Assembly (NCBI GenBank): GCA_025963725.1
Contig: JAOQAE010000002.1
Location: 1,356,411-1,420,410, forward strand
From: Bacteroidota bacterium
GTDB lineage: Bacteria > Bacteroidota > Bacteroidia > 2-12-FULL-35-15
DNA: 64,000 bases
Direction: 5' to 3'
Shown: positions 1,955-59,700 of the stretch, piece by piece
Numbering within the stretch: the stretch's first letter is position 1
Layout: each line of letters starts with the position of its first letter
Notes under the pieces: generated by a model
What the model saw: the letters and a program-made list of their open reading frames with translations, nothing else
Told to the model about the DNA's origin: nothing
The model's database searches: none
Made by a program: the position numbers and the translations under genes

Positions 1955-2110
1955 GCCTGTAAAATGTTATATAGAGTAAGAAGAAATCCTGCATCTAATT
2001 TACAAAAAAAAGCAGCGGGACTTACATCGGTTAAAAAAACAGGCTTTTGTTTGTTCCCGGAATATTGACTATAAGCTTTGCCTGTTGTTTTTTACGGTAT
2101 CTTTACATTC

Positions 2111-4114
2111 ATGAAAACGAAGATCTGTTCTGCCTTCCTGGCTTTTTTATTCCTGGGCTATTTCTCAGCTGCACAAACTGCCGGATACCTCTGGGCCCAG
2201 GGCACGGGCAACGGCGGCAATAGTGATAATGCCTACATTGTTGCCAGCGATCCCTGGGGCAATGCCATTGTTACAGGAGCGTTTTCGAGCGCCACCATGA
2301 GCTGCGGCGGCACTACACTTTATAATGCCGACACTGCGGGCGTTGATCCCGATGTTTTTGTTGTAAAATATGATCCGGCCGGAAATGTACTCTGGGCGAG
2401 ATCGGCAGGCGGCAGTTCCCAGGACGAAGGTTTTTGTGTATCAACCGATGCTTCCGGAAATGTGATTGTCTGCGGTTATTTTTCAGGCGCTACTATTACA
2501 TTCGGTAGTGTTACCCTCACGAATACATTTGCAGGCTTAAATGATTTTTTCATCGTAAAATACGACCCGACGGGTACAGTGCTTTGGGCACGCAACGGGG
2601 TAGGCGGCAACGACGAGTATGCACAGGCTGTTTCTGTAGATCCTTCAGGCAATATTTTTGTGACAGGTGGCTTCGGCAGCTCAAGCCTGACCATAGGAAG
2701 TACAACACTTTACAATGCAAGCAGCACCCTGGGTGATATGGACATGTTCATTGCAGGCTATGATCCATCCGGTAATGTGATCTGGGCTTATAGCGCGGGA
2801 GGAGCTGAAACCGACTTCGGCCTGGGCATTGCTGCCGATGTAACCGGTAACATTACAGTGGTGGGATTCTTCTCCAGTTCTTCCATCACGTTTGATACCC
2901 ATACGCTTATAAATGCCGGCAGCCCGGGCACGCAGGATATTTTTGTAGTAAAATATCTGGCATCCGGGAGCATCGGTTTCGCAAAAAGGGCTGGCGGGGC
3001 CGGCGACGATCTTGCGCGAAACGTCAGCACAAATGCAACAGACGATATTTTTGTAACCGGCCATTTCGCGAGCTCCTCTATTACCATTGGTGGAAGCACT
3101 TTGAATAATGCAGGTACCGGAACATCAGACATGTTCCTTGCAAAATATGACAACCTGGGTAATGCGGTATGGGCCAATTCAGCAGGAGGCAGTGCAGAGG
3201 AAATGGGAAAGCGTATCATCGGCGATGATAGCGGAAACGCAACGGTGATCGGTTATTTTATGAGCGACACAATGAATTTTGATTCTGTTTCACTTACAAA
3301 TGCCGGAAGCGGCACTGCCGACATTTATCTTGCAAAATATGATGCGACAGGCAACCGTGAATGGGTGCAGCGAGCAGGATCAACCGGGAATGATTACGGC
3401 TGGGGGATCCGCACAAATGCAAACAACGACACGTATGTGACAGGCTTTTTCAACAGCCCGGGCTTTGCACTGGGCAGCACTATGATAACGAACAGCGATC
3501 CAACCGGCAGCACTTTCGATTACTTTCTCGCGAAATTGATCACCACACCACCCTGCCACGCGTATTATTCAACCGTGTACGATTCTGCCTCCAATACATT
3601 TAACATTACTGTGGATTCTGCTACCGCAGCCGCAGCCGTAACCTATCGCTGGGACTTTGGCGATGGCACAATCTCGGCTTCACCTGCTCCTGTGCATACC
3701 TATGCAGTGGATTCCATTTATTCCGTTTGCATGACAGTTCACACCACCTTTGGCGATTCCTGCTTTTATTGTTCGTTGATCGGGAAGGATACTGCAGGGA
3801 ATATAATCCGTACAACGGGTTTTACTATTAATGTGCACAATCCAACAACCGGAGCACAGGAAATTACATCCGCCGATCCGGAAATAAGCATATACCCAAA
3901 CCCGGGCACAGGAATTTTCAGCATCCGTTCGGGCAAGCCGGTATCTGTTGTTGAAGTACTTAACATACTTGGTGAAAACATCCTGAATGTAAAAGTTCAG
4001 CAATCGGCAGAAACGACAAGCGTTGATCTTTCTGCTGAGCCAAACGGGATCTATTTCATACGGATCATTTCAGGTAAGCAGGAAACAATCAAAAAGATTT
4101 GTATTTCCAGGTAA
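2111..4114 (+). CDS. T9SS-sorted secreted protein with SBBP-type beta-propeller repeats, a PKD-like domain and a Por-secretion C-terminal domain
   Basis: Signal peptide MKTKICSAFLAFLFLGYFSAAQ. Repeated DxSGNVxVTGxF units occur about 12 times. A PKD-like segment reads YRWDFGDGT...HTY. The C-terminus (IYPNPGTGIFSIR...NGIYFIRIISGKQ) matches the T9SS type A sorting domain. I moved the start from the TTG at 2078 to the ATG at 2111, which precedes the signal peptide. Confidence 0.8.
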   Translation: MKTKICSAFLAFLFLGYFSAAQTAGYLWAQGTGNGGNSDNAYIVASDPWGNAIVTGAFSSATMSCGGTTLYNADTAGVDPDVFVVKYDPAGNVLWARSAGGSSQDEGFCVSTDASGNVIVCGYFSGATITFGSVTLTNTFAGLNDFFIVKYDPTGTVLWARNGVGGNDEYAQAVSVDPSGNIFVTGGFGSSSLTIGSTTLYNASSTLGDMDMFIAGYDPSGNVIWAYSAGGAETDFGLGIAADVTGNITVVGFFSSSSITFDTHTLINAGSPGTQDIFVVKYLASGSIGFAKRAGGAGDDLARNVSTNATDDIFVTGHFASSSITIGGSTLNNAGTGTSDMFLAKYDNLGNAVWANSAGGSAEEMGKRIIGDDSGNATVIGYFMSDTMNFDSVSLTNAGSGTADIYLAKYDATGNREWVQRAGSTGNDYGWGIRTNANNDTYVTGFFNSPGFALGSTMITNSDPTGSTFDYFLAKLITTPPCHAYYSTVYDSASNTFNITVDSATAAAAVTYRWDFGDGTISASPAPVHTYAVDSIYSVCMTVHTTFGDSCFYCSLIGKDTAGNIIRTTGFTINVHNPTTGAQEITSADPEISIYPNPGTGIFSIRSGKPVSVVEVLNILGENILNVKVQQSAETTSVDLSAEPNGIYFIRIISGKQETIKKICISR

Positions 4115-4130
4115 CGTAACGGCTTGAAGC

Positions 4131-4166
4131 AATAAAAAACCCGTCCTCTTTGCAGGGGACGGGCAT
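4131..4166. terminator. Bidirectional intrinsic-terminator-like hairpin between convergent genes
   Basis: A 7-bp GC stem (cccgtcc / ggacggg, 4140-4146 and 4157-4163) is preceded by an A-run at 4134-4139, which gives a U-run on the minus strand. It sits between the convergent ends of the 2111-4114 (+) and 4201-4596 (-) genes. Confidence 0.5.
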
Positions 4167-4200
4167 AATTAGATAAATCTCTCTAAACTAAATCTAATTA

Positions 4201-4596
4201 TTAATAATTGCCGGAGGCAATTGCTTTTTGTGAAGGTGAACTGCTGCTGGCTTCCTGGAACAATACGCCGTTGATGTAGATCTGTACATGAACGCTTTTT
4301 CTTGCAGGTGCTGCATTTGAAGCTTCGAGGTAAAAGAACTTTCCTTTGATGCAGGAAAAGCTTACGGAATGAGCTGCCCTTGTAATGGTTTCAGATTTCA
4401 TTTCCAGTTGCCCATCCGCGTTCGGGAACATATAGGATGCTTCTACATCCGCCGATTCGCTTGTGATCTTATATTCAACATTGATCGAAACCGGGGTTGC
4501 CGCAACCGGTGATTGTGGCTGAAGGTCATTCTCCTTTTTGCAGGAAACTGCTGTAATGCTTATTATTACTGCAAAAGCGAGGATTATTCTTTTCAT
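4201..4596 (-). CDS. Small lipoprotein, hypothetical
   Basis: N-terminus MKRIILAFAVIISITAVSCKK is a lipobox-type signal peptide. There is no recognisable domain. Confidence 0.55.
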   Translation of the reverse strand: MKRIILAFAVIISITAVSCKKENDLQPQSPVAATPVSINVEYKITSESADVEASYMFPNADGQLEMKSETITRAAHSVSFSCIKGKFFYLEASNAAPARKSVHVQIYINGVLFQEASSSSPSQKAIASGNY

Positions 4597-4865
4597 TTTG
4601 TGTGTTTCTTAGTTTGAATTCGAGTGCAAAAGTACACTTTTTTAAACACAAAGCAAATATTTGACGATAAATTTATGGTATTGGACGATAAAATTATTCT
4701 GAAAGGGGATAAAGCGGGATTTGGAGCTGCTGAAAAAAGAAGCAAAAGGAATATGGGATATGAGAGATGGTCTACTTCTCGATACGCTTCACTGCGTTAC
4801 GCACTCGAAGTGACCTATAACAATGAGAAACTCAAAATTACAACCAAAGCATTTTTAAGCATTGA

Positions 4866-5864
4866 TTAGAACTGCAAACTCAGCTTCCGGTACCCTTCAT
4901 GCGTTTCAGCTTTCATGCGCTCGATGATCTCATGGCATGATGCTATATCATCGATGAGCTCCACGCTTTGCCCTGCGCACCAAAGGGTTTGGTAATTGCC
5001 CGGGTGAATGGATTTCTCCAGCTTCTTCATTCCGCTCAGCTGCACCCACATCTTAAAATATTTTTTAGTGGTGGAATTGTTCGACAGCATGCGTTCCATC
5101 CAATTCTGCCGGTAGCCGATCTTCTTTGCGAAAGGCGTGTTGATAATGGTGCAGGGCGTGCCCGATATTTTTTCGGTCAGCACAATGTCGCTCATCTTCG
5201 AGCTTACCACCGCATTCTTGTAATCGTTGCTTACACCCGCCTCAATGCTTGCTATAAAGCGTGTGCCCACTGAAACTCCTGCCGCCCCAAGCGCCAGCAT
5301 CGAAAGGATCCCTTCCCCGCCCGCTATTCCACCCGCCGCGATCACGATCTTATCCGGGAAATGATGATGCAATGATGGGATCAGCACCTGCAGTGTATTA
5401 GGCCCTGCGTGCCCGCCGGCGCCCTGTCCCACCGCAATAAATCCATCACAGCCAAGGTCGTTGCACTTCTGCGCATGCTCTATATTGGTAACATCGCAGA
5501 ATACCTTTGCCCCGTACTTATGCGCCTCTTCGATCACCTGCTTCGGATTCCCCAGCGAAGTGATGTAAAAGGGAACTTTCTTCGCAACACAGATCGCAAG
5601 GTGCTTTTCATACAATGGATTTGTTTTCTGAACAATCAGATTAATGCCATACGTGCCTTTTGCGCCAGGGCCTTCCTTTGCCGCATTCAGCGCATCCAGC
5701 AGCTTTTCCAGCTCACCTTCATTCCTGTAGTTCAGGCTCGGGAATGTAGCCGCGATGCCGCTGTTCATGCCCGCTTTTACCATGGCTTCATTGCTGACCA
5801 GGAACATAGGCGCCATGATCATCGGAAAATCAATATTCAGTACTTCAGTGAGCTTTGTTTGCAT
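4866..5864 (-). CDS. Nitronate monooxygenase / NAD(P)H-dependent flavin oxidoreductase (NMO/FabK-like)
   Basis: IDFPMIMAPMFLVSNEAMVKAGMNSGIAATFP plus GAxxGGHxG-like IAVGQGAGGHAG. These are typical of the 2-nitropropane dioxygenase / enoyl-ACP reductase II family. Confidence 0.75.
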   Translation of the reverse strand: MQTKLTEVLNIDFPMIMAPMFLVSNEAMVKAGMNSGIAATFPSLNYRNEGELEKLLDALNAAKEGPGAKGTYGINLIVQKTNPLYEKHLAICVAKKVPFYITSLGNPKQVIEEAHKYGAKVFCDVTNIEHAQKCNDLGCDGFIAVGQGAGGHAGPNTLQVLIPSLHHHFPDKIVIAAGGIAGGEGILSMLALGAAGVSVGTRFIASIEAGVSNDYKNAVVSSKMSDIVLTEKISGTPCTIINTPFAKKIGYRQNWMERMLSNNSTTKKYFKMWVQLSGMKKLEKSIHPGNYQTLWCAGQSVELIDDIASCHEIIERMKAETHEGYRKLSLQF

Positions 5865-7771: not shown

Positions 7772-9709
7772 ATGAAAAAGCAAAAGCATGCCGCAAAGCA
7801 GAAGCAAACGGAGGCGCCCATTGTTGAGAAGAAGCTGCTGATCCGCCTTTCGCTCATCATTGCCGTTTTCTCATTCATCCTGTATGCCAATACGCTGCGC
7901 CACGAATTTGTGCTGGATGATAACTCCGTGATCAAGGAGAACACGATGACGCAGGGCGGCGTTTCCTCACTGAAAGCGATCTTCAGCTCCGCTTACCGTG
8001 CCGGCTATCCCAACGCCGAGAACAATCTATACAGGCCCCTTTCCAAAGCCATGTTTGCAGTGGAATGGCAGCTTTCACCCGACAATCCGCACATCCATCA
8101 TTTTGTGAATGTGCTGCTGTATGCGCTTGCCTGTGTGTTGCTTTTTATTGTTTTGAGCCGCTGGACGAAGATCAACATCTACGTGCTGTTCATCACCGCG
8201 CTTATTTTTGCCGCACATCCTATCCACACCGAAGTGGTTGCCAACATCAAAAGCAGGGACGAGATCCTTACCATGCTTTTCCTGTTGCTTTCACTGAATG
8301 CTGCATTGAACCACCTCAGCAATCAAAAAGCGCTTTCGCTGATCGCTTACCTCTTCTGTTTCTTCCTTGCGTTATTATCGAAGGAATCCGCGATCGTATT
8401 CATTGCCATTGTTCCGCTGTTCATTTATTTTTTCACGGAATTCCCTTTAAAGAAAAATTTGCTGCTCACATTCGCTGCGGCGGGTGTCGCCATTATCTAC
8501 CTGCTCATCCACAAAAGCGTGATCGGCAGCATCGGCTTATCGAACATTCCGGCCATCGACAATTCACTGCTGATCACCGACAATATATTCCTTCAAAAGG
8601 CGACTGCTATCATGATCATGGGCCGCTACCTGCTGCTGCTTATTTTCCCTCACCCGCTTTCCAGCGATTACTCCTTCAACACCATTCCCATTGTGAGCGG
8701 CGCCGGCGATCCTGCATTCCTGATTGCGCTGCTGATCCATGTATTCCTGCTTACATACGCGATAAAAAAAATAAAGGGAAAGCACCTGCTCTCTTTCTGC
8801 ATTCTCTTTTACCTCGTCAGCATGTCGATCGCCTCCAACATTTTCATGACCATCGGGACACACCTGGCGGAGCGACTGCTGTTCCTGCCCTCCATCGCAT
8901 ACTGCCTCGCACTGAGCTATCTCGCGTGTAAGCTGTTCAAAATAAATACCGCAACGGCGACAAACCTCAGTGCATTTTTTCGCACAGCAAAGCCGTATTC
9001 ATTTCTTACCGCAGCCCTGCTCCTGCTCTTCACATTCAAAACCACGGCAAGGAATAAGGACTGGAGATCGAACGGGGTGCTTTTCGAAAAGGATCTGCAA
9101 ACCGTTCCCAACAGCGCCCACATGCTGATGTACTATACCGATCACCTGCTCAAAAAAGAGAACCTCGACAAGCTTTCGCCGGAAGCAAGGCAGGCGCAGC
9201 TGATCAAAGCAAAAGGCTATATTGAGAAAGCGCTAAAGATATACGAGCTATTCCCCGACGCGCATTATTTATCCGGCAGGGCACACTATGAGCTGAAAGA
9301 TTACGAAAGCGCCTATAGGGAATATTTCAGGGCATTGTCGCTGAACCCCGGAAAGGCCATGTACCACAACAATGCAGGAACATCCCTTTTCTCACTGGGC
9401 AGGTACCCGGAAGCGGCAAAGGAATTTGAAACGGCCATGCAGCTGAACCCCGCCGATCCCGATCCTCCCTTCAATCTCGGAAGTGCATACGGCGCCATGG
9501 GCGAAGGCTACAGGCAGAAGAACGACATGGAAAATGCAGTCAAAATGTTTAACATCGCCATCCCGAATTTCCAGAAAGCGATCCGCATGAAGCCGGATTA
9601 TAAATCGGCTTACCAGTTCCTTGGCGCCACGTATATGAACATGGGCGATACGGTGAATGGGAAGATCTATTTGGGGAAGGCTGCGCTGGTGGTGGAGAGG
9701 AAGAAGTGA
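7772..9709 (+). CDS. Multi-pass membrane protein with C-terminal TPR repeats (DUF1736/TMTC/PMT-like glycosyltransferase family)
   Basis: At least 10 hydrophobic segments, with the motif YANTLRHEFVLDD near the N-terminus. C-terminal TPR-like repeats read AHYLSGRAHYELKDYESAYREYFRALSLNP... Confidence 0.7.
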   Translation: MKKQKHAAKQKQTEAPIVEKKLLIRLSLIIAVFSFILYANTLRHEFVLDDNSVIKENTMTQGGVSSLKAIFSSAYRAGYPNAENNLYRPLSKAMFAVEWQLSPDNPHIHHFVNVLLYALACVLLFIVLSRWTKINIYVLFITALIFAAHPIHTEVVANIKSRDEILTMLFLLLSLNAALNHLSNQKALSLIAYLFCFFLALLSKESAIVFIAIVPLFIYFFTEFPLKKNLLLTFAAAGVAIIYLLIHKSVIGSIGLSNIPAIDNSLLITDNIFLQKATAIMIMGRYLLLLIFPHPLSSDYSFNTIPIVSGAGDPAFLIALLIHVFLLTYAIKKIKGKHLLSFCILFYLVSMSIASNIFMTIGTHLAERLLFLPSIAYCLALSYLACKLFKINTATATNLSAFFRTAKPYSFLTAALLLLFTFKTTARNKDWRSNGVLFEKDLQTVPNSAHMLMYYTDHLLKKENLDKLSPEARQAQLIKAKGYIEKALKIYELFPDAHYLSGRAHYELKDYESAYREYFRALSLNPGKAMYHNNAGTSLFSLGRYPEAAKEFETAMQLNPADPDPPFNLGSAYGAMGEGYRQKNDMENAVKMFNIAIPNFQKAIRMKPDYKSAYQFLGATYMNMGDTVNGKIYLGKAALVVERKK

Positions 9710-9836
9710 GGGCAAGAGGGCTCTTGCGACACTTGAACATTAATAATTTGATGTAGGAAGACGTTTAACAGTTTCAAAAGCTTCACCCACGCCAAACTCA
9801 AAATCGTAGTAGTAATAATAAATAAAAAACAAGACA

Positions 9837-10985
9837 ATGGCATCATTAAAAGTATTTGTTTCATCTACATGCTATGACCTGAATATAGTTAGAGCACAAC
9901 TACGCTCTTTCTTGATTAATCTAGGTCACGAACCGGTAATGAGTGATTATAATGACGTATTGTTTGATCCTCGATCACATACGCATGAAAGTTGTATCCA
10001 AGAAATAAAAAACGCAGATGTCGTAATATTAATAATTGGTTCTAGATTTGGTGGAATGGCCACGCCAAAAGTTATTACGTCCTTAGATTTAGAAAATTTA
10101 AAAAACTTATCTAAAGGAAATAAGTTGATTGATACCCCTGATAAGATGTCCATAACCCAACTTGAAATATTAAATGCTGTTGAATCTAACATCCCCATTT
10201 TTACATTTATTGATTCTAGAGTATCGTATGATCATTTATTTTACGAAAAAAATAAAAATAAAGGATTTCTAGAAAATCTCGACTTTCCATCTATTGAAAA
10301 AAAAGAAAGTGCGATTTACATTTTCGAATTCATCAATTTTTTACGATTAAGATCAAAAAACAACAGTATTACAGAATTTAGTAAATCGGGTGATATAGAG
10401 GACTTTTTAAAAAAACAATGGTCATCTCTATTACAACGACTCCTGTCTGAACAGAAAAATAAAATTGTTGAAGAAAAACGACTCGATTTCTTATCGAAAC
10501 AGATCGAAGATATAAAAACAGCCATCTTAACTACCATTCCCAGTGACGAATTAAAAGAAACCGCTAAAGGTGCAATTAAGTATAGAGCCATCATAGACTT
10601 TTTGTTAAGTTTTAAAAACATTCCAACTACTGAAGAAATTATTTTAAGCAGGCTCAACTGGGAAGAACTTTTACTAAAATTTGGTATCGTTCGCACAGTG
10701 TTAACCCGAGATATAAAAAGAAAATACACTAAAAGAATGGTGATAGCTTTTATAAGAGCTGACGAGAGATTCTATTTAAGCAGATATGACAATGAGATAA
10801 TCGAAAATTATATTAAAATAGGTTGGATGGAGTTCACTCAACTACCAGATCAAAGAAAAAAAGCAATTTATAACGCTATCAAAGACAATTTTATAGAACG
10901 AGACTTTATCAGAGATTTAGAATTTATTGATAGGAAATTCGAGGACTATGAAATGGATACTAAACAGGAAGAAAAAACAGAATAA
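9837..10985 (+). CDS. DUF4062-like (TIR-superfamily) N-terminal domain protein with a helical C-terminal region; AT-rich islet
   Basis: N-terminus KVFVSSTCYDLNIVRAQLRSFLINLGHEPVMSDY...CIQEIKNADVVILIIGSRFGG matches the DUF4062 signature (VFISST.DL..eR). The gene is markedly AT-rich (about 33% GC), while flanking genes are about 50-55% GC. Confidence 0.6.
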   Translation: MASLKVFVSSTCYDLNIVRAQLRSFLINLGHEPVMSDYNDVLFDPRSHTHESCIQEIKNADVVILIIGSRFGGMATPKVITSLDLENLKNLSKGNKLIDTPDKMSITQLEILNAVESNIPIFTFIDSRVSYDHLFYEKNKNKGFLENLDFPSIEKKESAIYIFEFINFLRLRSKNNSITEFSKSGDIEDFLKKQWSSLLQRLLSEQKNKIVEEKRLDFLSKQIEDIKTAILTTIPSDELKETAKGAIKYRAIIDFLLSFKNIPTTEEIILSRLNWEELLLKFGIVRTVLTRDIKRKYTKRMVIAFIRADERFYLSRYDNEIIENYIKIGWMEFTQLPDQRKKAIYNAIKDNFIERDFIRDLEFIDRKFEDYEMDTKQEEKTE

Positions 10986-11087
10986 CTACTTGACCTGTAA
11001 GACAACAAGAGCAATTGAAAACGGATTTCCAATTGCCTTGGAACGAATTTGCCAACCTACTCTCGTTTAAAATAACTATCCATAAGA

Positions 11088-11618
11088 ATGTTCAACAATG
11101 ACAAACTTTCCAAATTAGTTATTCGTCAGTTTAATAACTCCGATAGTCTCGAAGAGCTCACTTCCTTACTTCATAAATCATATAAGAAGCTGGCTGATCA
11201 AGGTTTTCGCTTTCATGCATCTCACCAAGATATTCATACTACAAAGCAACGCATAGAAAACGCTGAATGCTATGTTATGACCATTGAGAATAAACTTATT
11301 GGCACAATTTCTTACCGTTCTCCAGCAGCCAAGGATGAACATCCCTATTACGATCAACCATTTGTTGCTTCGTTTGGACAATTTGCTGTTGATCCAGAGT
11401 ACCAGGAAATGGGGCTTGGCAGTAAATTAATAGACACGGCTGAAAAATGCGCCGTTCGTGACGGTGCAGAAGAAATTGCAATAGACACCGCAGAAGGAGC
11501 GACAAACCTTATCGAATACTATAATAAACGCGGCTACCGGTTCGTGACATATACGCAATGGGAAGTAACGAATTACCGGAGCGTAATACTTGCGAAAAGG
11601 TTAAAAACTCATCAGTAA
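11088..11618 (+). CDS. GNAT family N-acetyltransferase
   Basis: QFAVDPEYQEMGLGSKLIDTAEKCA matches acetyl-CoA binding motif A (Q/RxxGxG/A). Confidence 0.7.
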   Translation: MFNNDKLSKLVIRQFNNSDSLEELTSLLHKSYKKLADQGFRFHASHQDIHTTKQRIENAECYVMTIENKLIGTISYRSPAAKDEHPYYDQPFVASFGQFAVDPEYQEMGLGSKLIDTAEKCAVRDGAEEIAIDTAEGATNLIEYYNKRGYRFVTYTQWEVTNYRSVILAKRLKTHQ

Positions 11619-11695
11619 ACCCCGGAACGCCAATTACTATTATACTTCTGTAACAAATCTCCCCTTCCACCGTCACAGGATAAAAAATTCAAAAA

Positions 11696-12655
11696 ATGCG
11701 CTCTATCTTCATCACCATTTTCACGATCTTCTCTTTTGTTGCTTTCGCTCAAAATCCAGCGCACGGAACTTTTAAAAGAGACAGCCTGCTTGTTATTAAA
11801 AAGAATCCCGAAAAAGGATTTTACAATGACTACATCCTGTTCATTCCAAAAGGAACGCCCCTCAACAAACAAATCTTCCTGCTGGTGGAGCCGAACAACA
11901 CCGGCAAGCTATCCGACAGCATAGAGGTGCATGAAAAACATGCTGTTTACCTGGCCTCGGTAAGCTCGGTCGGGAACAACATTTCCACCGAGCTCAAAAT
12001 CCCTTTGCTGGTCCCTGTTTTCCCGAGGCCCGCATCCCGGCCGCTGATGTATACTCACGCCTTAGACAGGGATGTAATGGAAGAACGATCACCGGAACTA
12101 AAGCGGCTTGACCTGCAATTACTGGCAATGACAGACAATGTCAGGAGCATCTTGGCTGCGATGAATATCCGGGTTGCCCCTAAATTCTTCATGAGCGGAT
12201 TTTCGGCGTCCGCTACATTCACCAACCGCTTTTCCTTCATGCATCCCGAAAAAATACAGGCACTGGCCATCGGAGGATTCAACGGGGAGCTGATGCTTCC
12301 TCAAAAGGAAATAAACGGCATTAACCTTAATTATCCCCTCGGAACAAACGACTTTCCGGCATTATTCGGTAAAAGCTTTGACATTGATACATACAGGTCT
12401 ATCCCGCAGTTTATTTATATGGGGAAGCTGGATGAAAATGATGCCGTTCAGTATGACGACGCTTATAACGACACTGAACGCAACATTATTAATAATAACA
12501 TAGGAGCAGCTGTACAGAAAAGATATTTGAAATGTCAGGAAATTTACATAACGAATAATATTCAGCCCATCTTCAAAGTTTATGAAAACATTGGCCACTG
12601 GACTACTTCAGGCATGAATTTAGAGGTTATTAAATTCTTCGCGGGCCAAATGTGA
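11696..12655 (+). CDS. Secreted hypothetical protein (alpha/beta-hydrolase-like)
   Basis: Signal peptide MRSIFITIFTIFSFVAFAQ. A GFSAS pentapeptide resembles the nucleophile elbow GxSxG. No confident family assignment. Confidence 0.45.
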   Translation: MRSIFITIFTIFSFVAFAQNPAHGTFKRDSLLVIKKNPEKGFYNDYILFIPKGTPLNKQIFLLVEPNNTGKLSDSIEVHEKHAVYLASVSSVGNNISTELKIPLLVPVFPRPASRPLMYTHALDRDVMEERSPELKRLDLQLLAMTDNVRSILAAMNIRVAPKFFMSGFSASATFTNRFSFMHPEKIQALAIGGFNGELMLPQKEINGINLNYPLGTNDFPALFGKSFDIDTYRSIPQFIYMGKLDENDAVQYDDAYNDTERNIINNNIGAAVQKRYLKCQEIYITNNIQPIFKVYENIGHWTTSGMNLEVIKFFAGQM

Positions 12656-12734
12656 CGTGTCCGCATTTTTGCATTTACAATTCATTTTGTACCTTTAATA
12701 AGGTCAATGAGTAGAAACATATAAACACATTCAC

Positions 12735-13184
12735 ATGCCAGATAACAGCGTAAAATTGCATAAAGTGGTCAAAGCAGATCCTGCAAAAGTATACCGTGCC
12801 TTTACCGAAGCGCTCGCCATTTCATCTTGGCTCCCGCCTTACGGCTTTTTATGTACGGTGCATGAAATGGACGTACGTGTTGGCGGCGGCTATAAAATGT
12901 CCTTCACCAATTTCACTACCGGTAACAGCCATTCCTTTAGCGGAAAATACCTGGAACTAAAGCCGGGAGAATTCCTTAAATACACAGACAAATTTGATGA
13001 TCCCAACCTGCCGGGAGATATGATGACAACAGTACGCCTCAGGAAGGTTTCCTGCGGCACCGAACTGGAAGTTGTCCAGGAGAACATTCCTCCGGCTATA
13101 CCGGCAGAAATGTGCTACCTGGGCTGGCAGGATTCCATTGAAAAGCTGACGAAGCTGGTTGAGCCTCAGATTCCGGATGCCTGA
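12735..13184 (+). CDS. SRPBCC family protein (Aha1/AHSA1 activator-of-Hsp90-like domain)
   Basis: VVKADPAKVYRAFTEALAISSWLPP...GGGYKMSFTNFTTG...GKYLELKPGEFLKYT is typical of AHSA1/SRPBCC. Confidence 0.7.
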   Translation: MPDNSVKLHKVVKADPAKVYRAFTEALAISSWLPPYGFLCTVHEMDVRVGGGYKMSFTNFTTGNSHSFSGKYLELKPGEFLKYTDKFDDPNLPGDMMTTVRLRKVSCGTELEVVQENIPPAIPAEMCYLGWQDSIEKLTKLVEPQIPDA

Positions 13185-42181: not shown

Positions 42182-43513
42182 ATGGCACTGGAAAATGTAA
42201 GAAAGGCGGAGCTTCTGAAAGAGGAGCTGGACGGCCTGCGGCCCTTAAACGGCGAGCAGGAAGCCCGGATCATGCAGAAGTTCCGCCTCGACTGGAACTA
42301 CCACTCCAACCACCTGGAGGGGAACAGCCTTACATTCGGTGAGACAAAAGCGCTTATCCTGCACGGTATTACCGCGCAGGGTAAGCCTTTAAAAGACCAT
42401 TTCGAGATCACCGGCCATGATGAAGCCATCAAATGGATCGATGAGGTTATTAAGGATGAACGGCCGCTTACTGAGAATTTCATCCGGGAATTGCATACGC
42501 TCTTACTAAAGGAATCTTCCGAAAAAAAAGCCATCACTCCCGATGGAAAAGCCACTACAAGAGTTATTGCGGTTGGGAAATACAAAACAAGCCCCAACCA
42601 TGTGCTGACCAGCACGGGCGAAACATTTTATTTCGCCACACCGGAGGAAACACCGGCAAAAATGCATGATCTGCTGGAATGGTACCACAGGCAGAAAGAG
42701 AATAAAAATGTTAATCCGATCCTGTTAGCTGCAGAGTTCCATTATGAATTTATCCGCATCCATCCCTTTGATGATGGAAACGGAAGAACCGCCAGGATAT
42801 TAATGAATTTCATACTGATGCAGTTCCATTATCCTCCTGTGATCATTAAAACAGAGGATAAGGAAAATTACTTTATCGCCTTGCGGCAGGCCGATGCCGG
42901 AATGATAGAGCCTTTTATTGACTATATCGCAAACAACTTGATTCGATCATTGGAAATTATGATCAAAGGTGCAAAGGGTGGAAATATTGATGAGGAGGAT
43001 GATATTGATAAAGAGCTTCTTTTATTAGATCAGAAAATAAACTACATAAGTAAAAAAGCGCAACCATTAAAAAATCAGGATTCTATTAAACAAATCTATG
43101 AGAATTCGATTCTTCCATTAGCTAAACAATTGTCAGCTTCCGGTAAAAGGTTTGAACGATTTTACTCAAATTACATTTCGGCTCTTCAAATTAATGACGA
43201 CACGAGTGTTTACGACATAAACTCCGCGTTTAAATCAATTATCAAAAGCAACACAGATCAAATATATTTGATCCATAATTATAAGCAGTTTAATTGTCCG
43301 GGCATTGAAAAATTTGACTTTGATATAGTCATCACATTTGAATTCGCACCCAAAAAATTTACTGTTAAGACCACTTCCCAAAAGCTGGTTTATTCGAAAT
43401 ACTATAATGAATTTTTAAGTCTAAATGAAATCAAAGAAATTGCAGATTACTATACAAAACTCCATTTATCTGTACTTAAAATCGTAGTCGATAGCGCAGA
43501 AACAGAAGAATAA
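42182..43513 (+). CDS. Fic family protein (class II, N-terminal inhibitory helix) with an AT-rich C-terminal extension
   Basis: Fic active-site motif HPFDDGNGRTAR. Inhibitory motif SNHLEG ([S/T]xxxE[G/N]) sits in the N-terminal helix. The last 190 aa or so (nt ~42950-43513) are markedly AT-rich with no recognisable domain. Confidence 0.85.
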   Translation: MALENVRKAELLKEELDGLRPLNGEQEARIMQKFRLDWNYHSNHLEGNSLTFGETKALILHGITAQGKPLKDHFEITGHDEAIKWIDEVIKDERPLTENFIRELHTLLLKESSEKKAITPDGKATTRVIAVGKYKTSPNHVLTSTGETFYFATPEETPAKMHDLLEWYHRQKENKNVNPILLAAEFHYEFIRIHPFDDGNGRTARILMNFILMQFHYPPVIIKTEDKENYFIALRQADAGMIEPFIDYIANNLIRSLEIMIKGAKGGNIDEEDDIDKELLLLDQKINYISKKAQPLKNQDSIKQIYENSILPLAKQLSASGKRFERFYSNYISALQINDDTSVYDINSAFKSIIKSNTDQIYLIHNYKQFNCPGIEKFDFDIVITFEFAPKKFTVKTTSQKLVYSKYYNEFLSLNEIKEIADYYTKLHLSVLKIVVDSAETEE

Positions 43514-43560
43514 TTATTTATTAAGCAATATTTATTGCATCATTGTTTAAGCACCAGCAA

Positions 43561-44415
43561 ATGAAAAAATTATACGCGTCTCTTTTTGCTTCCATGCTGC
43601 TCCTTACTGCATTTGCCGGTAACGAAGATTACCCCATCGGCGCCCGCTCAGCTGCATTGGGAAATGCTTCCGTATCGCTGAGCGATCTGTGGAGCGCGCA
43701 TCATAACCAGGCGGGGCTCGGCTTTGTGCGTGACATTTCCGCAGGCGTATCCTATGAGAACCGCTTTTTATTAAAAGAGATCAGCGTGAGAGGCGGCGCC
43801 GTTGCATTGCCGATCAAGGCAGGCACCTTCGGGCTCTGCATCACCAATTTCGGATATTCACAATACAGCGAGAACAAATACAGCCTTTCCTTCGCAAAAG
43901 CTTTCAGCAATAAGTTCTCCGCAGGCATCGCGATGGATTACCTGAACACGAAGATCGCGGAAGGCTACGGCAGCAGAGGCGCGCTGGCAGCGGAAGCAGG
44001 CATCATTGCAAAGCCCATTAAAGGTTTAACGATCGGTGCACATGTGTTCAACCCTACGCGCGCAAAAATTTCCGCTTACGACGATGAACGCTTGCCTACC
44101 ATCATCCGCCTCGGCGGCGATTATTTATTTTCTGATAAGGTGCGGCTCGCAGTTGAAGCACAAAAAGATATTAAATACAAAGCCGAGTTCAAGGCGGGGC
44201 TTGAATACCTTCCCGTGAAAGAGCTGTACCTGCGCATCGGTATTTCCACGAACCCAACATTAAGCACATTCGGCTTCGGCCTCAACCTCAATAATTTCAA
44301 GATCGACCTTTCCGCAAGCTATCATCAAACGCTGGGGATCAGTCCGCAGCTCGGACTGAGCTATTCTTTCAAAAAAGCAAAAAAAGAGCTCCACGAATCC
44401 GAAGACGTTTTTTGA
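43561..44415 (+). CDS. Outer-membrane beta-barrel-like protein, hypothetical
   Basis: Signal peptide MKKLYASLFASMLLLTAFAG. Alternating amphipathic beta strands; C-terminal residue F. Its stop overlaps the TTG start of the downstream helix-hairpin-helix (HhH) protein. Confidence 0.5.
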   Translation: MKKLYASLFASMLLLTAFAGNEDYPIGARSAALGNASVSLSDLWSAHHNQAGLGFVRDISAGVSYENRFLLKEISVRGGAVALPIKAGTFGLCITNFGYSQYSENKYSLSFAKAFSNKFSAGIAMDYLNTKIAEGYGSRGALAAEAGIIAKPIKGLTIGAHVFNPTRAKISAYDDERLPTIIRLGGDYLFSDKVRLAVEAQKDIKYKAEFKAGLEYLPVKELYLRIGISTNPTLSTFGFGLNLNNFKIDLSASYHQTLGISPQLGLSYSFKKAKKELHESEDVF

Positions 44416-53843: not shown

Positions 53844-55301
53844 ATGACTATAAAAAATCTTGAAGATGTATTTGTTACGGAAGGTGTTCCCCTTTATACC
53901 TTCGTAAAACCACCAAACTATAATGATATACTTTTAGACATTCGTAAAATTGGTAAGCCGGTTATTATTGAAGGGCAATCTGGGACTGGAAAAACAACCA
54001 CAGTGAAAAAAGTTCTTGAACAACTTGCTGAGAGGATTCAAATCAACTATTTGTCAGCAAGAAAAGCGATTGACGTAGAACAAATAGTGAAAATTGCTTC
54101 CACATCAATGTCCGGTTTTTTTGTCATCGACGATTTTCATAGGTTATCAAGCGAATTGCAGGAAAACCTCGCCAACATTGCTAAAGTTGCCGCGGAAGAA
54201 GGAAATGAAACACAACTTCCTAAGCTTATTTTTATTGGAATTAATCAAATTGGGTCGGAACTGATTCAATTAGTTCCTGACATTGCTAAACGATTTGGTA
54301 TACATAGAATTGATGCTGGAAGAAGCGATGATATTAAAAAGCTTATTGACAGCGGCTGCGCCGAATTAAATATTTCAATTACCAATCTAGAAGAAATTTA
54401 TTCTGAGTCCAAAGGTGATTATTGGCTAACTCAAATACTATGTCAGTCAATTTGTGGTTTGAATGACGTCACTGAAACCCAACAAAAAAAACGGCAAATA
54501 CATTATGATATTGACAAAACGCGCGCAAAAGTTGTTGGTAAGCTAGAAGCTTCTTATCACATTCCAGTGAAGGACTTTTGCCGGGGAAAGCGATTTCGAA
54601 AATCAAATGATCCGTATTTTAAGCTTCTTCGAGTTATCGGACAACAAGATTCGTCCATAGTTGACCTCAACAAACTTGCCAATCAGCATGAGGATGTCAA
54701 AGGTTCGATTAATAACATTAAGGAGCGACGTCTTGACATTTTGTTGGAGACTAAAGAATCATTAGTTAGATACTTTTATTATAACAGTGATACAAAAAAT
54801 TTCGCCATCGAAGATCCCGCACTATTTTATTACATAAAGCACTTAAATTGGGAGAAATTAAGAGATGATTGTGGCTTCAATGATGGAGAACGAAATTACG
54901 AATTTGAGATTGCTATCTCCTTCGCTGGGGAAAACCGTGAACTTGCAAGAAAATTCACTGAAAAACTAGAGATTTTTGATGTAAGCGTGTTTTTTGATGA
55001 ATTATACGAATCTAATCTATTAGGAAAGGCTTTAACGAAGCAATTTACTAGAATATTTAATGAAGGAAGCAAGTTTGTATTATGCCTGTTAGACCATCAT
55101 CATCATGAAAAAATATGGCCAACATTCGAGAGAGAAACTTTCCGCGTACGCGTTCAAGAAGAAGCTATCATACCTACTTATCTTGACAATACTAAGTTTC
55201 TTGGAATTCCAGAAGATTTGTATGGTTTTGATATGAAAAATGGATATTCTGAAGATGATATAGATAACGCGGTTATTAAATTGGTAGAAAGAATTAGTTG
55301 A
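53844..55301 (+). CDS. P-loop NTPase with C-terminal TIR domain (defense-like); AT-rich
   Basis: Walker A PVIIEGQSGTGKTTTV and Walker B FFVIDDFH in the first 110 aa or so. C-terminal EFEIAISFAGENRELARKFTEKLEIFDVSVFFDE...SKFVLCLLDHHHHEKIWPTFE matches TIR secondary-structure motifs (FISY/FAGED..., αC SxWCxxEL-like). GC is about 36%, against about 50% in neighbours. Confidence 0.65.
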   Translation: MTIKNLEDVFVTEGVPLYTFVKPPNYNDILLDIRKIGKPVIIEGQSGTGKTTTVKKVLEQLAERIQINYLSARKAIDVEQIVKIASTSMSGFFVIDDFHRLSSELQENLANIAKVAAEEGNETQLPKLIFIGINQIGSELIQLVPDIAKRFGIHRIDAGRSDDIKKLIDSGCAELNISITNLEEIYSESKGDYWLTQILCQSICGLNDVTETQQKKRQIHYDIDKTRAKVVGKLEASYHIPVKDFCRGKRFRKSNDPYFKLLRVIGQQDSSIVDLNKLANQHEDVKGSINNIKERRLDILLETKESLVRYFYYNSDTKNFAIEDPALFYYIKHLNWEKLRDDCGFNDGERNYEFEIAISFAGENRELARKFTEKLEIFDVSVFFDELYESNLLGKALTKQFTRIFNEGSKFVLCLLDHHHHEKIWPTFERETFRVRVQEEAIIPTYLDNTKFLGIPEDLYGFDMKNGYSEDDIDNAVIKLVERIS

Positions 55302-55503
55302 AAGTTTTCAGCGGTGTGACACCAGCTAGTCCTTTTTCAATCATTTATTTCTTCCACTTCCCCAGAGATGTGATTGATGTGCAGAACACCAAGCAAGGAA
55401 CTATTATTCGGTTCCAAAACCTCTCCAATCGTAGCTGTATTTCTCTCTTTTCCCCCACCGGATAAATTCCGTATTTTTAGATACTCATTCCAACACCGCG
55501 TTT

Positions 55504-56706
55504 ATGCTCAAACCATTCGAATTTCAGTTCCGGTTAAGGGATCATTTCAAAAAGCAGGAAAAAACCTGGAAATGGTTCTCGGAAGTAAAAGTTAAGAACG
55601 AACAAAGCGAGGAGTTCAAAGCCGAGCTTTTACAAAACACCTATCGCCTCGACCCTATCTCCGAAGCCGGCATTTATACATTGCTGGAGGAAGCCAAAAC
55701 AAAGCTGGGCATCATCATCCCGGTCACCATCTATCAGTCGCAATCTTCACAGGCAAGCAACGCGGGGATCATCTTCATCGGGAACGAAGCGCACCTTGTG
55801 CTTTCAGGCCCTGTCATAAAATTACTCGAAGAAAAGGAATTGCTGGCGCTGATCGCGCACGAGCTCTCGCATGTGCTGCTGTATACAATTGATAATGGCG
55901 ATTTTGAGGTGACCAGCAGGATCATCACAGCGATCGGCAACGATCACCGCAGCGAAGAAGCATTCATGGAAACGTCAAGGCTGTTCAGTCTTTTCACTGA
56001 ATTATACTGCGACATCGGGGCTTACCAGGTTTGCGGAAGCATGGATACGGTGATCTCGACGCTTGTGAAAATTGAAACAGGCCTTGATAAGATCTCCGCG
56101 GAAAATTACCTGAAACAGGCGGATGAGATCCTGGAAAAAATTGAAAAAGGCTCGCTTGGCGACTCGCATCCCGAATCATTTATCCGCGCAAAATGCATTG
56201 CCCTCTACGCTGAAAAAGGCGCGGAATCAGTAAAAGAAGTAAGCGCCCTTATTCTTGGGAAACAAGGTATTTTCAGCCTGAATATTTTTTCAAGGGATGA
56301 GATCTATGAAACAACACGCGAGCTGATCCACCTTATCATGAAGCCTAAATGGATGCAGAGCGAGCACAACAAAGCGCATTACAGGCAGTATTTCAGGGAC
56401 TTCAAAACCGACAGCAATGCCATGCTCACACCTGAGCTGAAAGCCAAGCTGGTCAGCGGCAATAATTCGCTGAAAGATTATTACGCGTATGTTATGCTTG
56501 ATTTTGCGCTGAGCGATACAGAGATCAGTGAACCCGCTTCCGGCCTTGTGCTCGACCTTGCAGAGCAGATGGAGCTACAGGAGCCGCTTGCAAAGGTCTT
56601 CAAAAAGGAGCTAAACCTGAGCGATAAGAAATTCAACGAGTACTCAAGAAATGCAGCAACAGCCTTAAATAATATCCTGGAATCGGAGCAGGAAAAATCA
56701 TATTGA
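55504..56706 (+). CDS. Soluble M48-like zinc metallopeptidase (HExxH...E...HPxxxxR)
   Basis: LLALIAHELSHVLLY (HExxH), a downstream Glu in ELYCD, and LGDSHPESFIRAKC. No TM segments. Its stop (56704-56706) is 1 nt before the ATG of the giant helicase gene, so the two are translationally coupled. Confidence 0.55.
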   Translation: MLKPFEFQFRLRDHFKKQEKTWKWFSEVKVKNEQSEEFKAELLQNTYRLDPISEAGIYTLLEEAKTKLGIIIPVTIYQSQSSQASNAGIIFIGNEAHLVLSGPVIKLLEEKELLALIAHELSHVLLYTIDNGDFEVTSRIITAIGNDHRSEEAFMETSRLFSLFTELYCDIGAYQVCGSMDTVISTLVKIETGLDKISAENYLKQADEILEKIEKGSLGDSHPESFIRAKCIALYAEKGAESVKEVSALILGKQGIFSLNIFSRDEIYETTRELIHLIMKPKWMQSEHNKAHYRQYFRDFKTDSNAMLTPELKAKLVSGNNSLKDYYAYVMLDFALSDTEISEPASGLVLDLAEQMELQEPLAKVFKKELNLSDKKFNEYSRNAATALNNILESEQEKSY

Positions 56707-56707
56707 T

Positions 56708-59700
56708 ATGCTTACAATAAAAGAAACGGAATTTTACAGCTTCCTCAGCGAAGGGATCGGCAAGGGCGGGTTTACCAATGATGATGTGGTTGCTGTTATA
56801 ATGCCATTGCTGGAAGAAGTGCATTCATTTCATCTTTCGGGAAAGGTGGCCCCGCTGGATAAGCTCAGCTCGATACTTGTAACAAACGAAAAGCTCGATA
56901 TTGATGAGTCGCTTGCGGGAAGCCCCTGCAATAACGTTGACAAGGTAACAGCCATCCTGCCAAAGAAAAATGAGGTGTTCGAGATCAGCGGCCACCTGAA
57001 GCAATCGACAGAGATCGGCGAATACAATTCCACCGAAGTAAAGAACCGCGAGATACAATCTGATGCGAATGCGGACATCCTGATGCCGGTGTACCTGCCC
57101 AATTATAAATGCTACGAGGTGTCGCTCGGCCATCACGATGCTGCTACCGACATTTACATCCTGGGGATGATCCTCGCGAGCCTAGCGCTGGGGCTTGACT
57201 TCACGCAGGAAGATGACCTTGCAGGCTTCGCGGAGAACAGGGGAAGCATGATCTTCCTGAATCACAAGATCCATCCTTCGATCGCGAACATCATTTTCGG
57301 GATGACCGAGCTCGACCGCCGCAAACGCTGGAAAGACCTTGGCGAGATCATCGATAATTTAAAGAACTACCGCGATTACAACCCGGAAACCGAGCACGAC
57401 CTTGCCACTATCGCCAATGCAAAGAACAAGGACAAAAGCAACAGGCAGCACTACATCCAGGGCAAGCTGCGCAACAGGCTGTTCGACATCAGCCGCCGCA
57501 ACAGGCTCTTGTATTTCAAGCCCAATCTTAAATTTTTAAATCTTTCCGTGTCTTCCGTTCCTGCGGTCCTTAATTACAAAAACATCGATCCTGAATCGTT
57601 GTTCTTCTGGAACAGGGATGTTTCCGAAAAGGTGATAAAAGGAAAAGACATTTCCCTTTCGAAATACATCCGCTTTGAAGACAATCCTTACATCGCGCCT
57701 TCCCTCGACAAGATCAGGCTGGAAGCGAACAGGGATGTGAATGAATATGGCTTCAGCCAGCTTAAGCTTGTGATCAGCTTCCTCAACTGGTACAATACAA
57801 AGGAGCAAACAACCGAAAAGATCTGCTCACCGCTCATACTTGTACCGGTAAACCTCGTTAAGAAAAAAGGCGTGAAAGACCAGTACATCCTGGAAATTGT
57901 GGACAATGAAGCGGAAATAAACCCGGTGCTTTCATTCATGCTGAAAGACCTGTACGACATCCGCCTGCCGGAAAGCATACAGCTTTCGGAGAGCAGCCTC
58001 GATGAGCTTTTCCGGAATTTAAAGACACAGATAGAAAAGGCGCGCTCGGGGATCGTGCTCGAAATGATCAACAAACCAAAGATCAAGCTGATCCATGCGC
58101 AGGCCAGGCAAACGCTGTCGCAATACAAAAGAAGGGTGAACAGGAACAGGAAAGTACAAACCTTTCACAACCTTGATTATTCGTACAATGCAGATAATTT
58201 CCAGCCTTTAGGCCTGCAGCTTTTCCGCAATTATGTGAAGCCGGAGCATTCCTCGCTCGAGTTCCTTATCAACAGCGACATAAAAGCGAATCCCTCCTAC
58301 TTCAGCGACAGCAGCATGTCGGAAACAACCCGCGAACTGTACCAGCTCGATGGGGGAAATACAAATCCTTTCAAATGGGAGTTCGATACCTGCAACATGG
58401 TGCTGGGGAATTTCAATTATAAAAAGATGTCGCTGGTGCGCGATTACAATTCCATCATCGACGAGAACATTCAAAGCAGCGTGTTCGAATCGCTGTTCAG
58501 CAGCCTTCCGAAAAAGGCCCGGCCGGAACAGGAAACGGAAAGCAGGATCGAAGAGCAGTTCAATGTGATCCAGTCGGACCCGACACAAAACAAGTCAGTA
58601 ATATATTCCCGCAAAGGGGAAAGCTATATCATCCAGGGCCCTCCGGGCACAGGGAAATCGCAGACCATTTCCAACCTTATTGCAGATTATGTGGCAAGAG
58701 GAAAAAAAGTGCTGTTCGTTTGTGAGAAAAGGGCCGCTATCGATGTGGTGTATTACAGGCTGAAGCAGCAGCAGCTCGATCAGCTGTGCTGTCTCATACA
58801 CGATTCCCAAACCGACAAGAAAGAGTTCATCCAGAACCTGAAAGCTACCTTCGGAACATTTACAACGAAGCCGCTTTCCGCAAAGGAAGCAGAAAAGGAA
58901 CGGAACGCTATCGTTGCGCAGATCAATTCGGAGCTCAGCGTCATCAAAGAATTTCACTCCTCCATGCAGCATTACCTTGATCATGCGCAGCTGAAAATAA
59001 GGGAGCTGATGGAAGTGTTGATCCAGAGTAAGCAGCATATTCCGGAAGGCAAAGAAATACCGGGAAGCATTGGCTATAAAGACTGGCTTGCCTACGGCGG
59101 GCTGATTCAGAAGATCTCCCGGACAAGCAACGAGCTGGAGGGAAGCCCTTTTTATTCGAAACATCCATTCAGGTACTTGGGTGAAAAAGCGATCTATAAC
59201 GAGAAGCCGGGAACTGAGCTGAAGGCAGAGCTTATAAGATCGATGGAGCTGGTCGGCGAGATCGCTGAGAGGCTTGAAATGGCCGACGTTCCGGAATCAT
59301 GCATAGGCAGCATTACAGCGCTCCGGGAATTCCTGGAACAGGTGGAAATGCTTCTTCCGTTCAAAGAGCAGGACCGGGCCGGGCTGCTTACCGTCAACAG
59401 CGAACTTCATAAAAAGCTTTCCGATGCAGTGACCAACCTCGAAACGATGCATGCGAAAGTGGAAGAAGCCGCAGGAAAGAATAAGTTCTGGCTTCAGAAG
59501 TTTTCGGAGACCGATGCGGAAAATGCGCTTGAGATCGTGCAAAAACATGAAAGATCATTTTTCTCATTCTTCAATTCCAGCTTCAGGAAGATCAAAAAAG
59601 CGATCCATCAATCCTATAATTTTTCCATGCACCAGGTAAAGCCGCCGCTCACACAGGTGGTTTCCAACCTCAAGGCGGAATACGATGTGCGCAATAGCTT

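Follow-up and report, generated by a model that had tools for sequence, protein, structure and literature searches.

The window analysed here, 64,000 nucleotides of contig JAOQAE010000002.1 from a Bacteroidota bacterium, contains a gene for a 382-amino-acid (aa) protein that begins with a DUF4062 domain, also called NIR, continues into a long helical stalk and ends in a region containing DUF8285 (Table 1). The gene likely specifies a self-contained, single-gene anti-phage protein of the DUF4062/NIR class that acts by abortive infection. The initial annotation, made from the sequence alone, had proposed a possible minimal effector, toxin or defence gene, and this proposal has gained support from three preprints of 2026, on Swarozyc (10.64898/2026.05.01.722283), Evangelion (10.64898/2026.06.25.731849) and NIR (10.64898/2026.09.04.749371), which show DUF4062 proteins to be TIR-like NAD+ glycohydrolases (NADases) of anti-phage abortive infection. 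The defence role of the domain is therefore already published; what is new in the present lineage is a putative sensor with no known structural relative and, close to the predicted active site, an insertion specific to the lineage.

Table 1. Features of the DUF4062 locus (positions are those of the window)
Feature	Position	Strand	Basis and remarks
DUF4062(NIR)-stalk-DUF8285 gene	9837..10985	+	Intact open reading frame, 382 aa, ATG start; candidate single-gene NADase-type abortive-infection defence protein
TIR-like alpha/beta catalytic domain (predicted), aa 1-181	9837..10379	+	AlphaFold2 secondary structure, Foldseek, conservation
Invariant H48-T49-H50 motif, BB-loop-like region	9978..9986	+	55 members; position of Eva01 Q-W-E ('SQWE')
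Lineage-specific insertion, aa ~74-103, between strand C and catalytic helix	10056..10145	+	Alignments
GAA codon of E110, predicted catalytic glutamate; motif S105-x-T107-Q108-x-E110	10164..10166	+	Invariance, alignment with Eva01 E87
Long single helix (stalk), aa 184-233	10386..10535	+	AlphaFold2 helix; conserved Q194-W195 motif at its start
C-terminal alpha+beta domain, aa 234-382, including DUF8285; putative sensor	10536..10982	+	Separate AlphaFold2 model
Hairpin, possible weak terminator	11006..11040	+	21 nt past the stop codon; -11.9 kcal/mol, z=-1.77 versus shuffles, not significant
Variable cargo segment, DUF4062 gene and GNAT gene	9717..11647	.	Nucleotide comparison with L085 and L086
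GNAT acetyltransferase, co-cargo	11088..11618	+	PF00583, E=7e-14; GC 0.403, GC3 0.356
Left flank, TPR/TMTC-like membrane protein	7772..9709	+	Pfam TPR, TMTC_DUF1736; 92% identical proteins in L085 and L086
Right flank, 319-aa protein	11696..12655	+	Immediately follows the variable segment: L085 4564-5523, L086 2901-3860

Domain architecture and predicted active site

The open reading frame (ORF) and its N-terminus were found as the initial annotation had read them, and its assignment of roughly the first 75 aa to DUF4062 is borne out by a Pfam match to PF13271 over aa 5-76 (E=2e-17, 63.6 bits, with a gathering cutoff of 24.7 bits). Beyond PF13271 no Pfam family matched the protein at E<=0.1, TIR/TIR_2, HEAT and other repeats and NTPase domains included; the precomputed annotation of an identical protein (P0001) lists PF13271 together with PF26934 (DUF8285). 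Searches of PDB sequences by phmmer and by profile returned a single, weak match, TEP1 (11gz_A), and a weak profile match to TINF2 (E=0.22) was dismissed as noise.

An AlphaFold2 (AF2) model of the whole protein, built from a 55-sequence family alignment (mean predicted local distance difference test score, pLDDT, 80.6), consists of an alpha/beta domain, a helix of ~50 residues and a C-terminal alpha+beta domain. The roughly 300-aa helical region initially expected after residue 75 did not materialise: the TIR-like fold extends to about aa 181, with five strands (5-10, 32-35, 62-67, 121-126 and 176-181) flanked by helices, and is followed by the long helix and a 149-aa alpha+beta domain. In Foldseek searches against the PDB the top ranks are held by TIR domains (RPS4, SARM1, L6, TIR-1 and ThsB), in agreement with the TIR-superfamily placement proposed at the outset, and the next ones by DNPH1/Rcl and BcmB. 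By profile, catalytic glutamate and fold, the protein belongs to the DUF4062/NIR domain family. Canonical TIR NADases (SARM1, plant TIRs, ThsB, TIR-APAZ) resemble it in the flavodoxin-like five-stranded fold and in the glutamate on the helix after strand C, whereas sequence identity to them is 10-17% and DUF4062 constitutes a separate family.

Conservation across the 55 family sequences is concentrated in this domain. Invariant positions are S9-S10-T11, Y13-D14, R19, H48-T49-H50, G68, R70, G72-G73, S105, T107, Q108, E110 and, at the start of the stalk, Q194, while F7 and W195 are kept in at least 90% of the sequences; F7, S9-S10-T11, D14, R19, G68, G72, S105 and E110 are also common to five divergent DUF4062 lineages. 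In pairwise and multiple alignments E110 coincides with E87, and F7 with F11, of the Evangelion protein Eva01, in which mutation of either residue abolishes defence (10.64898/2026.06.25.731849). Through Eva01, E110 would further correspond to E97 of KpSwz and E108 of PsAvs2. W195 of the Q-W motif is a plausible counterpart of Eva01 W162, although the alignment is unreliable there.

Two features near the predicted pocket set the lineage apart. The loop at aa 39-48, which leads into the invariant H-T-H motif, is modelled with pLDDT <50, and its counterpart in TIR domains would be the regulatory BB loop; the motif itself recurs in a relative from Acinetobacter baumannii and in one from Peredibacter (P0248). 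The insertion, ~24-30 aa long, is more variable than the core (column entropy 1.77); it is present in the A. baumannii relative and missing in Eva01, in the DUF4062 protein of Enterococcus pXD5 and in P0248, and the insertion-less relatives found by cluster look-ups are environmental sequences such as that of Peredibacter.

The same region bears on the principal rival explanation, according to which fold and defence logic are retained and the substrate is a different one, the protein being a nucleotide or nucleoside N-glycosidase (for cytidine monophosphate (CMP), deoxynucleoside monophosphates or NADP+) that depletes the nucleotide pool. The CMP N-glycosidase BcmB and DNPH1/Rcl match the model at least as well as TIR domains do in Foldseek; the DUF4062 domain of Avs2 was first annotated as a CMP hydrolase by Gao et al., as cited in 10.64898/2026.09.04.749371; and both the insertion and H-T-H lie close to the predicted pocket. 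However, every DUF4062 protein with measured chemistry converts NAD+ (TEP1 also NADP+) into ADP-ribose (ADPR) and nicotinamide, and the catalytic glutamate and the S-x-T motif are unaltered here, so that an altered substrate appears unlikely and NAD+ hydrolysis remains the preferred prediction.

The C-terminal domain shows the opposite tendency to the core. Column entropy is ~0.8 in the catalytic core, 1.9-2.6 in the C-terminal region and 2.3-2.6 at the distal C-terminus. Modelled alone, the 149-aa domain is predicted with high confidence (pLDDT 90.3, predicted template modelling score 0.83) as helices followed by a beta-hairpin. For this topology Foldseek offers no meaningful relative: the best PDB match has E=0.63 and a probability of 0.12, the best BFVD match E=0.26. 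No mention of DUF8285 (PF26934) was found in the literature searched. In many relatives the similarity to the window protein starts at aa 1 but ends at ~215 or ~288, where unrelated C-termini take over; in relatives with other C-termini homology reaches about aa 205-232, that is, into the stalk. In a distant relative of 1921 aa (P0233) the same N-terminal module and stalk are fused to NACHT and WD40 propellers. Since the core is conserved and the C-terminus both variable and swapped among relatives, the pattern of the DUF4062 family is that of a putative conserved effector equipped with exchangeable sensors.

Nor is the full-length architecture an unusual fusion, as had been supposed initially. 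It belongs to a large conserved family, with 1606 matches among clusters at 90% identity; among representatives at 50% identity, 159 match at E<=1e-30 and 2047 at E<=1e-3. The 80 family loci collected span Bacteroidota, Pseudomonadota, Bacillota, Verrucomicrobiota, Acidobacteriota, spirochaetes, Planctomycetota and Zixibacteria, with a patchy distribution across phyla.

The A. baumannii relative (417 aa) is 47% identical to the window protein over aa 1-288, insertion included, and diverges afterwards; its C-terminal region matches Acinetobacter proteins only. A weak Phage_GPO match in it was set aside as noise, and its identity with AbSwz of the Swarozyc paper could not be shown. Three uncharacterised genes lie divergently upstream of its gene, with no Pfam or PADLOC matches. 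Its records, two contigs from the phage collection labelled 'Acinetobacter phage MD-2021a' (L084, CAKLQF020000019.1, and CAKLQH020000040.1), resemble A. baumannii chromosomal contigs (garK, fabG, acrR, entF and similar genes).

Foreign composition, cargo exchange and mobility

The gene has the lowest GC content among the genes of the window (0.307). Its GC at third codon positions (GC3), 0.264, is likewise the lowest, 3.3 standard deviations below the mean of the 36 long ORFs of the window (0.573, standard deviation 0.095). Between ~9750 and ~11100, GC in 300-nt windows stays at 0.27-0.34; no 1-kb bin of the 64-kb window, whose mean is 0.474, is lower than 10001-11000 (0.300). An islet of about 33% GC between flanks of about 52% had been noted initially; the trough is real, but the contrast had been drawn too sharply, as the TPR gene has 0.496 and the GNAT gene, with 0.403, falls inside the variable segment rather than in a flank.

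These figures also address the possibility that the gene is a housekeeping or regulatory gene, or a non-functional relic, whose low GC merely reflects the amino acids encoded. The protein is indeed rich in Lys, Asn and Ile, and its neighbours in the window are housekeeping genes. Yet the anomaly sits at synonymous sites, so amino-acid composition alone is insufficient to account for it; moreover, the gene is missing from the same slot in a close relative, the family is patchy across phyla and every family-invariant residue is intact, which leaves this explanation with a very slight probability.

The slot itself is defined by comparison with two metagenome contigs of that close relative, L085 and L086. 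Their flanks are 83-92% identical in nucleotide sequence to the window; the identity breaks ~8 nt past the stop codon of the TPR gene and resumes at 11648. Between the flanks lies other sequence, 1887 bp in L085 (2632-4518) and 1295 bp in L086 (1561-2855), and the DUF4062 gene is missing from both. In L085 the cargo is a 481-aa AAA_13 ATPase with a PADLOC match to PDC-S06 (E=9e-35) and matches to PrrC, AriA and LmuB-like proteins, together with a 123-aa protein; in L086 it is a DUF4279 (and DUF1579-like) protein together with the same 123-aa protein. Because other cargo occupies the space between matching flanks in L085 and L086, the DUF4062-GNAT segment of the window is one allele of a small chromosomal hotspot without an integrase. 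The 123-aa protein common to L085 and L086 has a hydrophobic C-terminus and is missing from the window.

No signs of site-specific insertion were detected: direct repeats do not flank the segment, the window is devoid of tRNA genes, and no integrase is encoded nearby. On these grounds an integrase-mediated island was rejected. Exchange by homologous recombination through the conserved flanks accounts for the cargo most simply and is probably how it arrived. The accompanying GNAT gene is missing from L085 and L086 as well, and no homologue of it adjoins DUF4062 genes at the 80 family loci; neighbour clustering thus rejects it as a conserved partner. The 319-aa protein of the right flank has no Pfam or PADLOC matches. 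It carries a probable signal peptide, and GC dips to 0.35-0.37 over the 3' end of its gene and the following spacer (12300-12750).

Around the DUF4062 gene, promoter and terminator scans gave background levels, with a sigma-70 consensus that is unsuited to Bacteroidota, and in the consensus scan the palindrome of the downstream hairpin appears on the minus strand alone. Neither credible small ORFs nor Rfam matches were found in the spacers of the window. When 1311 neighbouring ORFs from 81 loci were clustered, no family recurred at more than seven loci. As neither a recurrent neighbour family nor a small ORF or Rfam match is associated with it, the unit is a single gene.

The lack of a partner weighs on two further explanations. 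The gene could serve a mobile element as a selfish toxin or for addiction, its product being an NADase or other effector of constitutive toxicity that stabilises an island or takes part in interbacterial conflict and senses no phage. Foreign composition and mobility would suit such an element, and DUF4062 activation is toxic once triggered; conversely, there are no conserved adjoining antitoxin or immunity genes and neither a secretion signal nor a secretion-system neighbourhood, the stability of the intact ORF in the chromosome and its wide retention imply a protein that is non-toxic at rest, and the variable C-terminus fits a sensor. A toxin of this kind is accordingly improbable. Still less credit is due to a Thoeris-like arrangement, in which a signal-generating TIR-like enzyme would produce cyclic ADPR isomers or similar molecules that activate a separate effector: although the fold is TIR-like and ThsB figures among the structural matches, no effector gene is conserved nearby, and KpSwz and TEP1 yielded ADPR as the sole product, with no cyclic products (10.64898/2026.05.01.722283). 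A single phage-sensing NADase thus remains the favoured reading, with the Thoeris-like one very unlikely.

Homologues elsewhere share the foreign composition and travel among unrelated settings. At all 74 loci longer than 6 kb (74/74) the DUF4062 gene has a lower GC than its flanks, by 0.10 on average. The nearest homologues (72-77% identity; P0007, P0021 and P0013) lie in unrelated contexts: a tyrosine integrase gene is found ~4.5 kb upstream of the gene for P0007, P0013 occupies a third, unrelated genomic setting, and P0021 (72% identity to the window protein) occurs as an identical protein behind two different left flanks, in L099 and L100. To the right the two loci share a block of ~7 kb in which a gene for a GmrSD (DUF262/DUF1524) type IV restriction enzyme and a helix-turn-helix (HTH) gene accompany small genes that lack annotation. 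The arrangement resembles a larger, mobile island of defence genes with its left boundary immediately upstream of the DUF4062 gene. Family members are also carried on 10 prophage- or satellite-like IMG/VR contigs, whose other ORFs match phage primase, helicase, repressor, CII, anti-repressor, integrase, excisionase and small terminase. Together with the GC3 outlier and the other cargo in the close relative, the uniform AT shift and the unrelated contexts uphold the initial suggestion of a small, horizontally acquired cassette. Neither of the findings named at the outset as refuting it, a missing PF13271 match or a conserved position lacking any GC anomaly, was observed.

A tblastn search of PLSDB (72,556 plasmids) returned eight records, all N-terminal-only matches with coverage of at most 39% and no full-length members, and plasmid tblastn with two queries gave no enterobacterial matches. 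In Fibrella musci one of the two ORFs of at least 100 aa upstream of a family member is TnpB/Cas12f-like (L007, 7908-9287; PADLOC Cas12f, E=3e-75), which points to an adjoining IS200/IS605-type element.

Defence genes are frequent next to the family. The 140 immediate neighbours of family members matched 155 PADLOC models, among them PtuA, AriA, GajA, mad3, NsnB and AbiLi, and 140 distal ORFs matched 25 (E<=1e-10), a crude comparison, since redundant models rather than proteins are counted, but one consistent in direction. This agrees with published surveys, in which ~20% of DUF4062 genes lie within defence islands and, elsewhere, 20.0% versus an expected 3.9% are near defence genes (10.64898/2026.05.01.722283; 10.64898/2026.09.04.749371).

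Comparison with known DUF4062 systems and proposed function

Among the characterised systems, Swarozyc shares the three-part organisation. In KpSwz of Klebsiella pneumoniae, a domain with E97 as catalytic residue is followed by a helical stalk and by an auxiliary domain (AUX) of HTH/winged type; once activated by the phage portal, the protein hydrolyses NAD+, yielding ADPR and nicotinamide (Osinski et al. 2026, 10.64898/2026.05.01.722283). Set beside this description, the window protein likewise has an N-terminal DUF4062 domain with a predicted catalytic glutamate, a stalk and a compact C-terminal domain, and both are single, horizontally mobile proteins; the logic to be expected would be that of an autoinhibited oligomer whose AUX binds the trigger, leading to NAD+ hydrolysis and abortive infection. 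The differences, again with KpSwz known by description, concern the insertion, which KpSwz lacks to judge by residue numbering (E97, a 15-aa leader and W176, against E110 and W195 here), and the C-terminus: the AUX of KpSwz is an HTH/winged domain with a W238/Y239 portal-binding hairpin, whereas the DUF8285 region has neither a winged-helix match in the PDB copies searched, which lack KpSwz, nor a WY motif.

Eva01, encoded on the Staphylococcus aureus plasmid pMW2 (WP_000072390.1), requires F11, E87, W162 and its AUX for defence; NAD+ drops upon infection, and phages that escape carry mutations in recombination genes, the trigger being linked to phage recombination proteins (Ibarra-Chavez et al. 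2026, 10.64898/2026.06.25.731849). It shares with the window protein a single-gene DUF4062 core with a diversified auxiliary region, carriage on mobile DNA and the correspondence of F11/E87 to F7/E110. However, only aa 5-130 of the window protein align with it (27% identity, BLASTP), the C-terminal half has no similarity, and MAFFT alignment yields no conserved C-terminal columns. Eva01 has Q-W-E, E87-Y88 and no insertion, whereas the family studied here has H-T-H(E), E-I/V and the insertion. The Eva01 gene lies on a plasmid and is linked to resistance genes; full-length members of this family are missing from the plasmids searched. Membership in the Eva01 lineage was ruled out by the missing C-terminal similarity, the other motifs and the absence of a full-length plasmid relative. 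To judge from sequence, the protein nonetheless appears to fit a broad notion of Evangelion, in which one gene without a conserved partner combines a DUF4062 core and a variable AUX.

The NIR set comprises PsAvs2 (E108), Vulcan (NIR with HEAT repeats) and Vesta (NIR with an alkaline phosphatase) (Le Mouellic et al. 2026, 10.64898/2026.09.04.749371). The common element is an NIR effector with a catalytic glutamate that causes NAD+ depletion and abortive infection, and Vulcan is also a single protein. Assignment to any of the three was ruled out. Vulcan ends in HEAT repeats, whereas the window protein ends in a 149-aa alpha+beta domain and has no HEAT or other repeat match at the threshold given above; Vesta pairs a small NIR protein and an alkaline phosphatase in a two-gene operon, whereas the gene here is followed by GNAT, has no phosphatase partner and belongs to a family that keeps no partner across 80 loci; and the NLR-like NIR-Avs proteins have a central STAND NTPase and TPRs, neither of which is present in the window protein. 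In KpSwz, PsAvs2, Vulcan, Vesta and TEP1, NAD+ is depleted or hydrolysed through the equivalent glutamate (10.64898/2026.05.01.722283; 10.64898/2026.09.04.749371).

By analogy with these proteins, from which we infer the NADase chemistry, the autoinhibition, the sensing of a trigger and the defence phenotype, the following mechanism may be proposed. The DUF4062 and GNAT genes were gained horizontally into the integrase-less hotspot between the TPR-membrane gene and the 319-aa gene. The N-terminal TIR-like domain would be an NAD+ glycohydrolase with E110 as predicted catalytic residue, held inactive in the uninfected cell, probably within an oligomer organised by the stalk (aa 184-233) and the H48-T49-H50 loop. 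The variable C-terminal DUF8285 domain might then recognise a phage-derived protein or replication intermediate, and the signal, passing along the stalk, would release the autoinhibited NADase and deplete NAD+.

Several observations weigh against this proposal. The gene has no match in PADLOC-DB 2023 or NCBIfam 2026, and both therefore miss it in annotation; its immediate neighbours in the window are housekeeping genes, with no defence island; and the enrichment of defence models near its homologues rests on the crude count described above. The Foldseek matches to TIR domains have a probability of 1.0 yet E-values of only ~1e-3, which is marginal, and by TM-score BcmB (0.70, target-normalised) and DNPH1/Rcl (0.59-0.65) do at least as well as TIR domains (0.57). 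Nor is activity universal in the wider family, as Eva02 gave no protection (10.64898/2026.06.25.731849) and NWD1, NWD2 and NPHP3 have no NADase activity (10.64898/2026.05.01.722283). Finally, because of the insertion before the catalytic helix and of H-T-H in place of Q-W-E, regulation or substrate could differ from those of Eva01. Taken further, the same features would make DUF4062-DUF8285 a functionally distinct type of defence, with a sensor of new fold, a trigger not yet described and either another mode of regulation or a substrate other than NAD+; this stronger version is possible but doubtful.

That DUF4062/NIR NADases are immune effectors of wide distribution became known only in 2026. 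They connect human TEP1 and the vault with bacterial defence; the systems tested to date come from Enterobacteria, Pseudomonas and Staphylococcus. The DUF4062-DUF8285 lineage is large and common in Bacteroidota, Bacillota and Proteobacteria, and its putative sensor domain is without a known structural relative. Its characterisation would widen the known triggers and hosts of this effector class and give DUF8285 a function. The locus, with three cargoes between matching flanks, also offers a clean and minimal example of an integrase-less defence hotspot.

Other loci in the window

A second probable defence cluster of three genes lies ~44 kb away on the same strand (53844-62170, +). Its first gene encodes a 485-aa P-loop NTPase (nSTAND3/AAA_22) with a C-terminal TIR_2 domain (PADLOC PDC-S59, E=5e-14) and has the second lowest GC3 in the window (0.282). 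The second encodes a 400-aa M48/SprT-like metallopeptidase, and the third a protein of 1820 aa with DUF4011, helicase, REase_MTES_1575 and WGR domains, matched by the PADLOC models PDC-S37 (E=2e-203) and Hhe (1e-97). Elsewhere in the window GC dips mildly at 4001-5000 (0.413) and 43001-44000 (0.400), and below-average GC3 is seen in the ORFs at 2078-4114 (0.475) and 42182-43513 (0.445).

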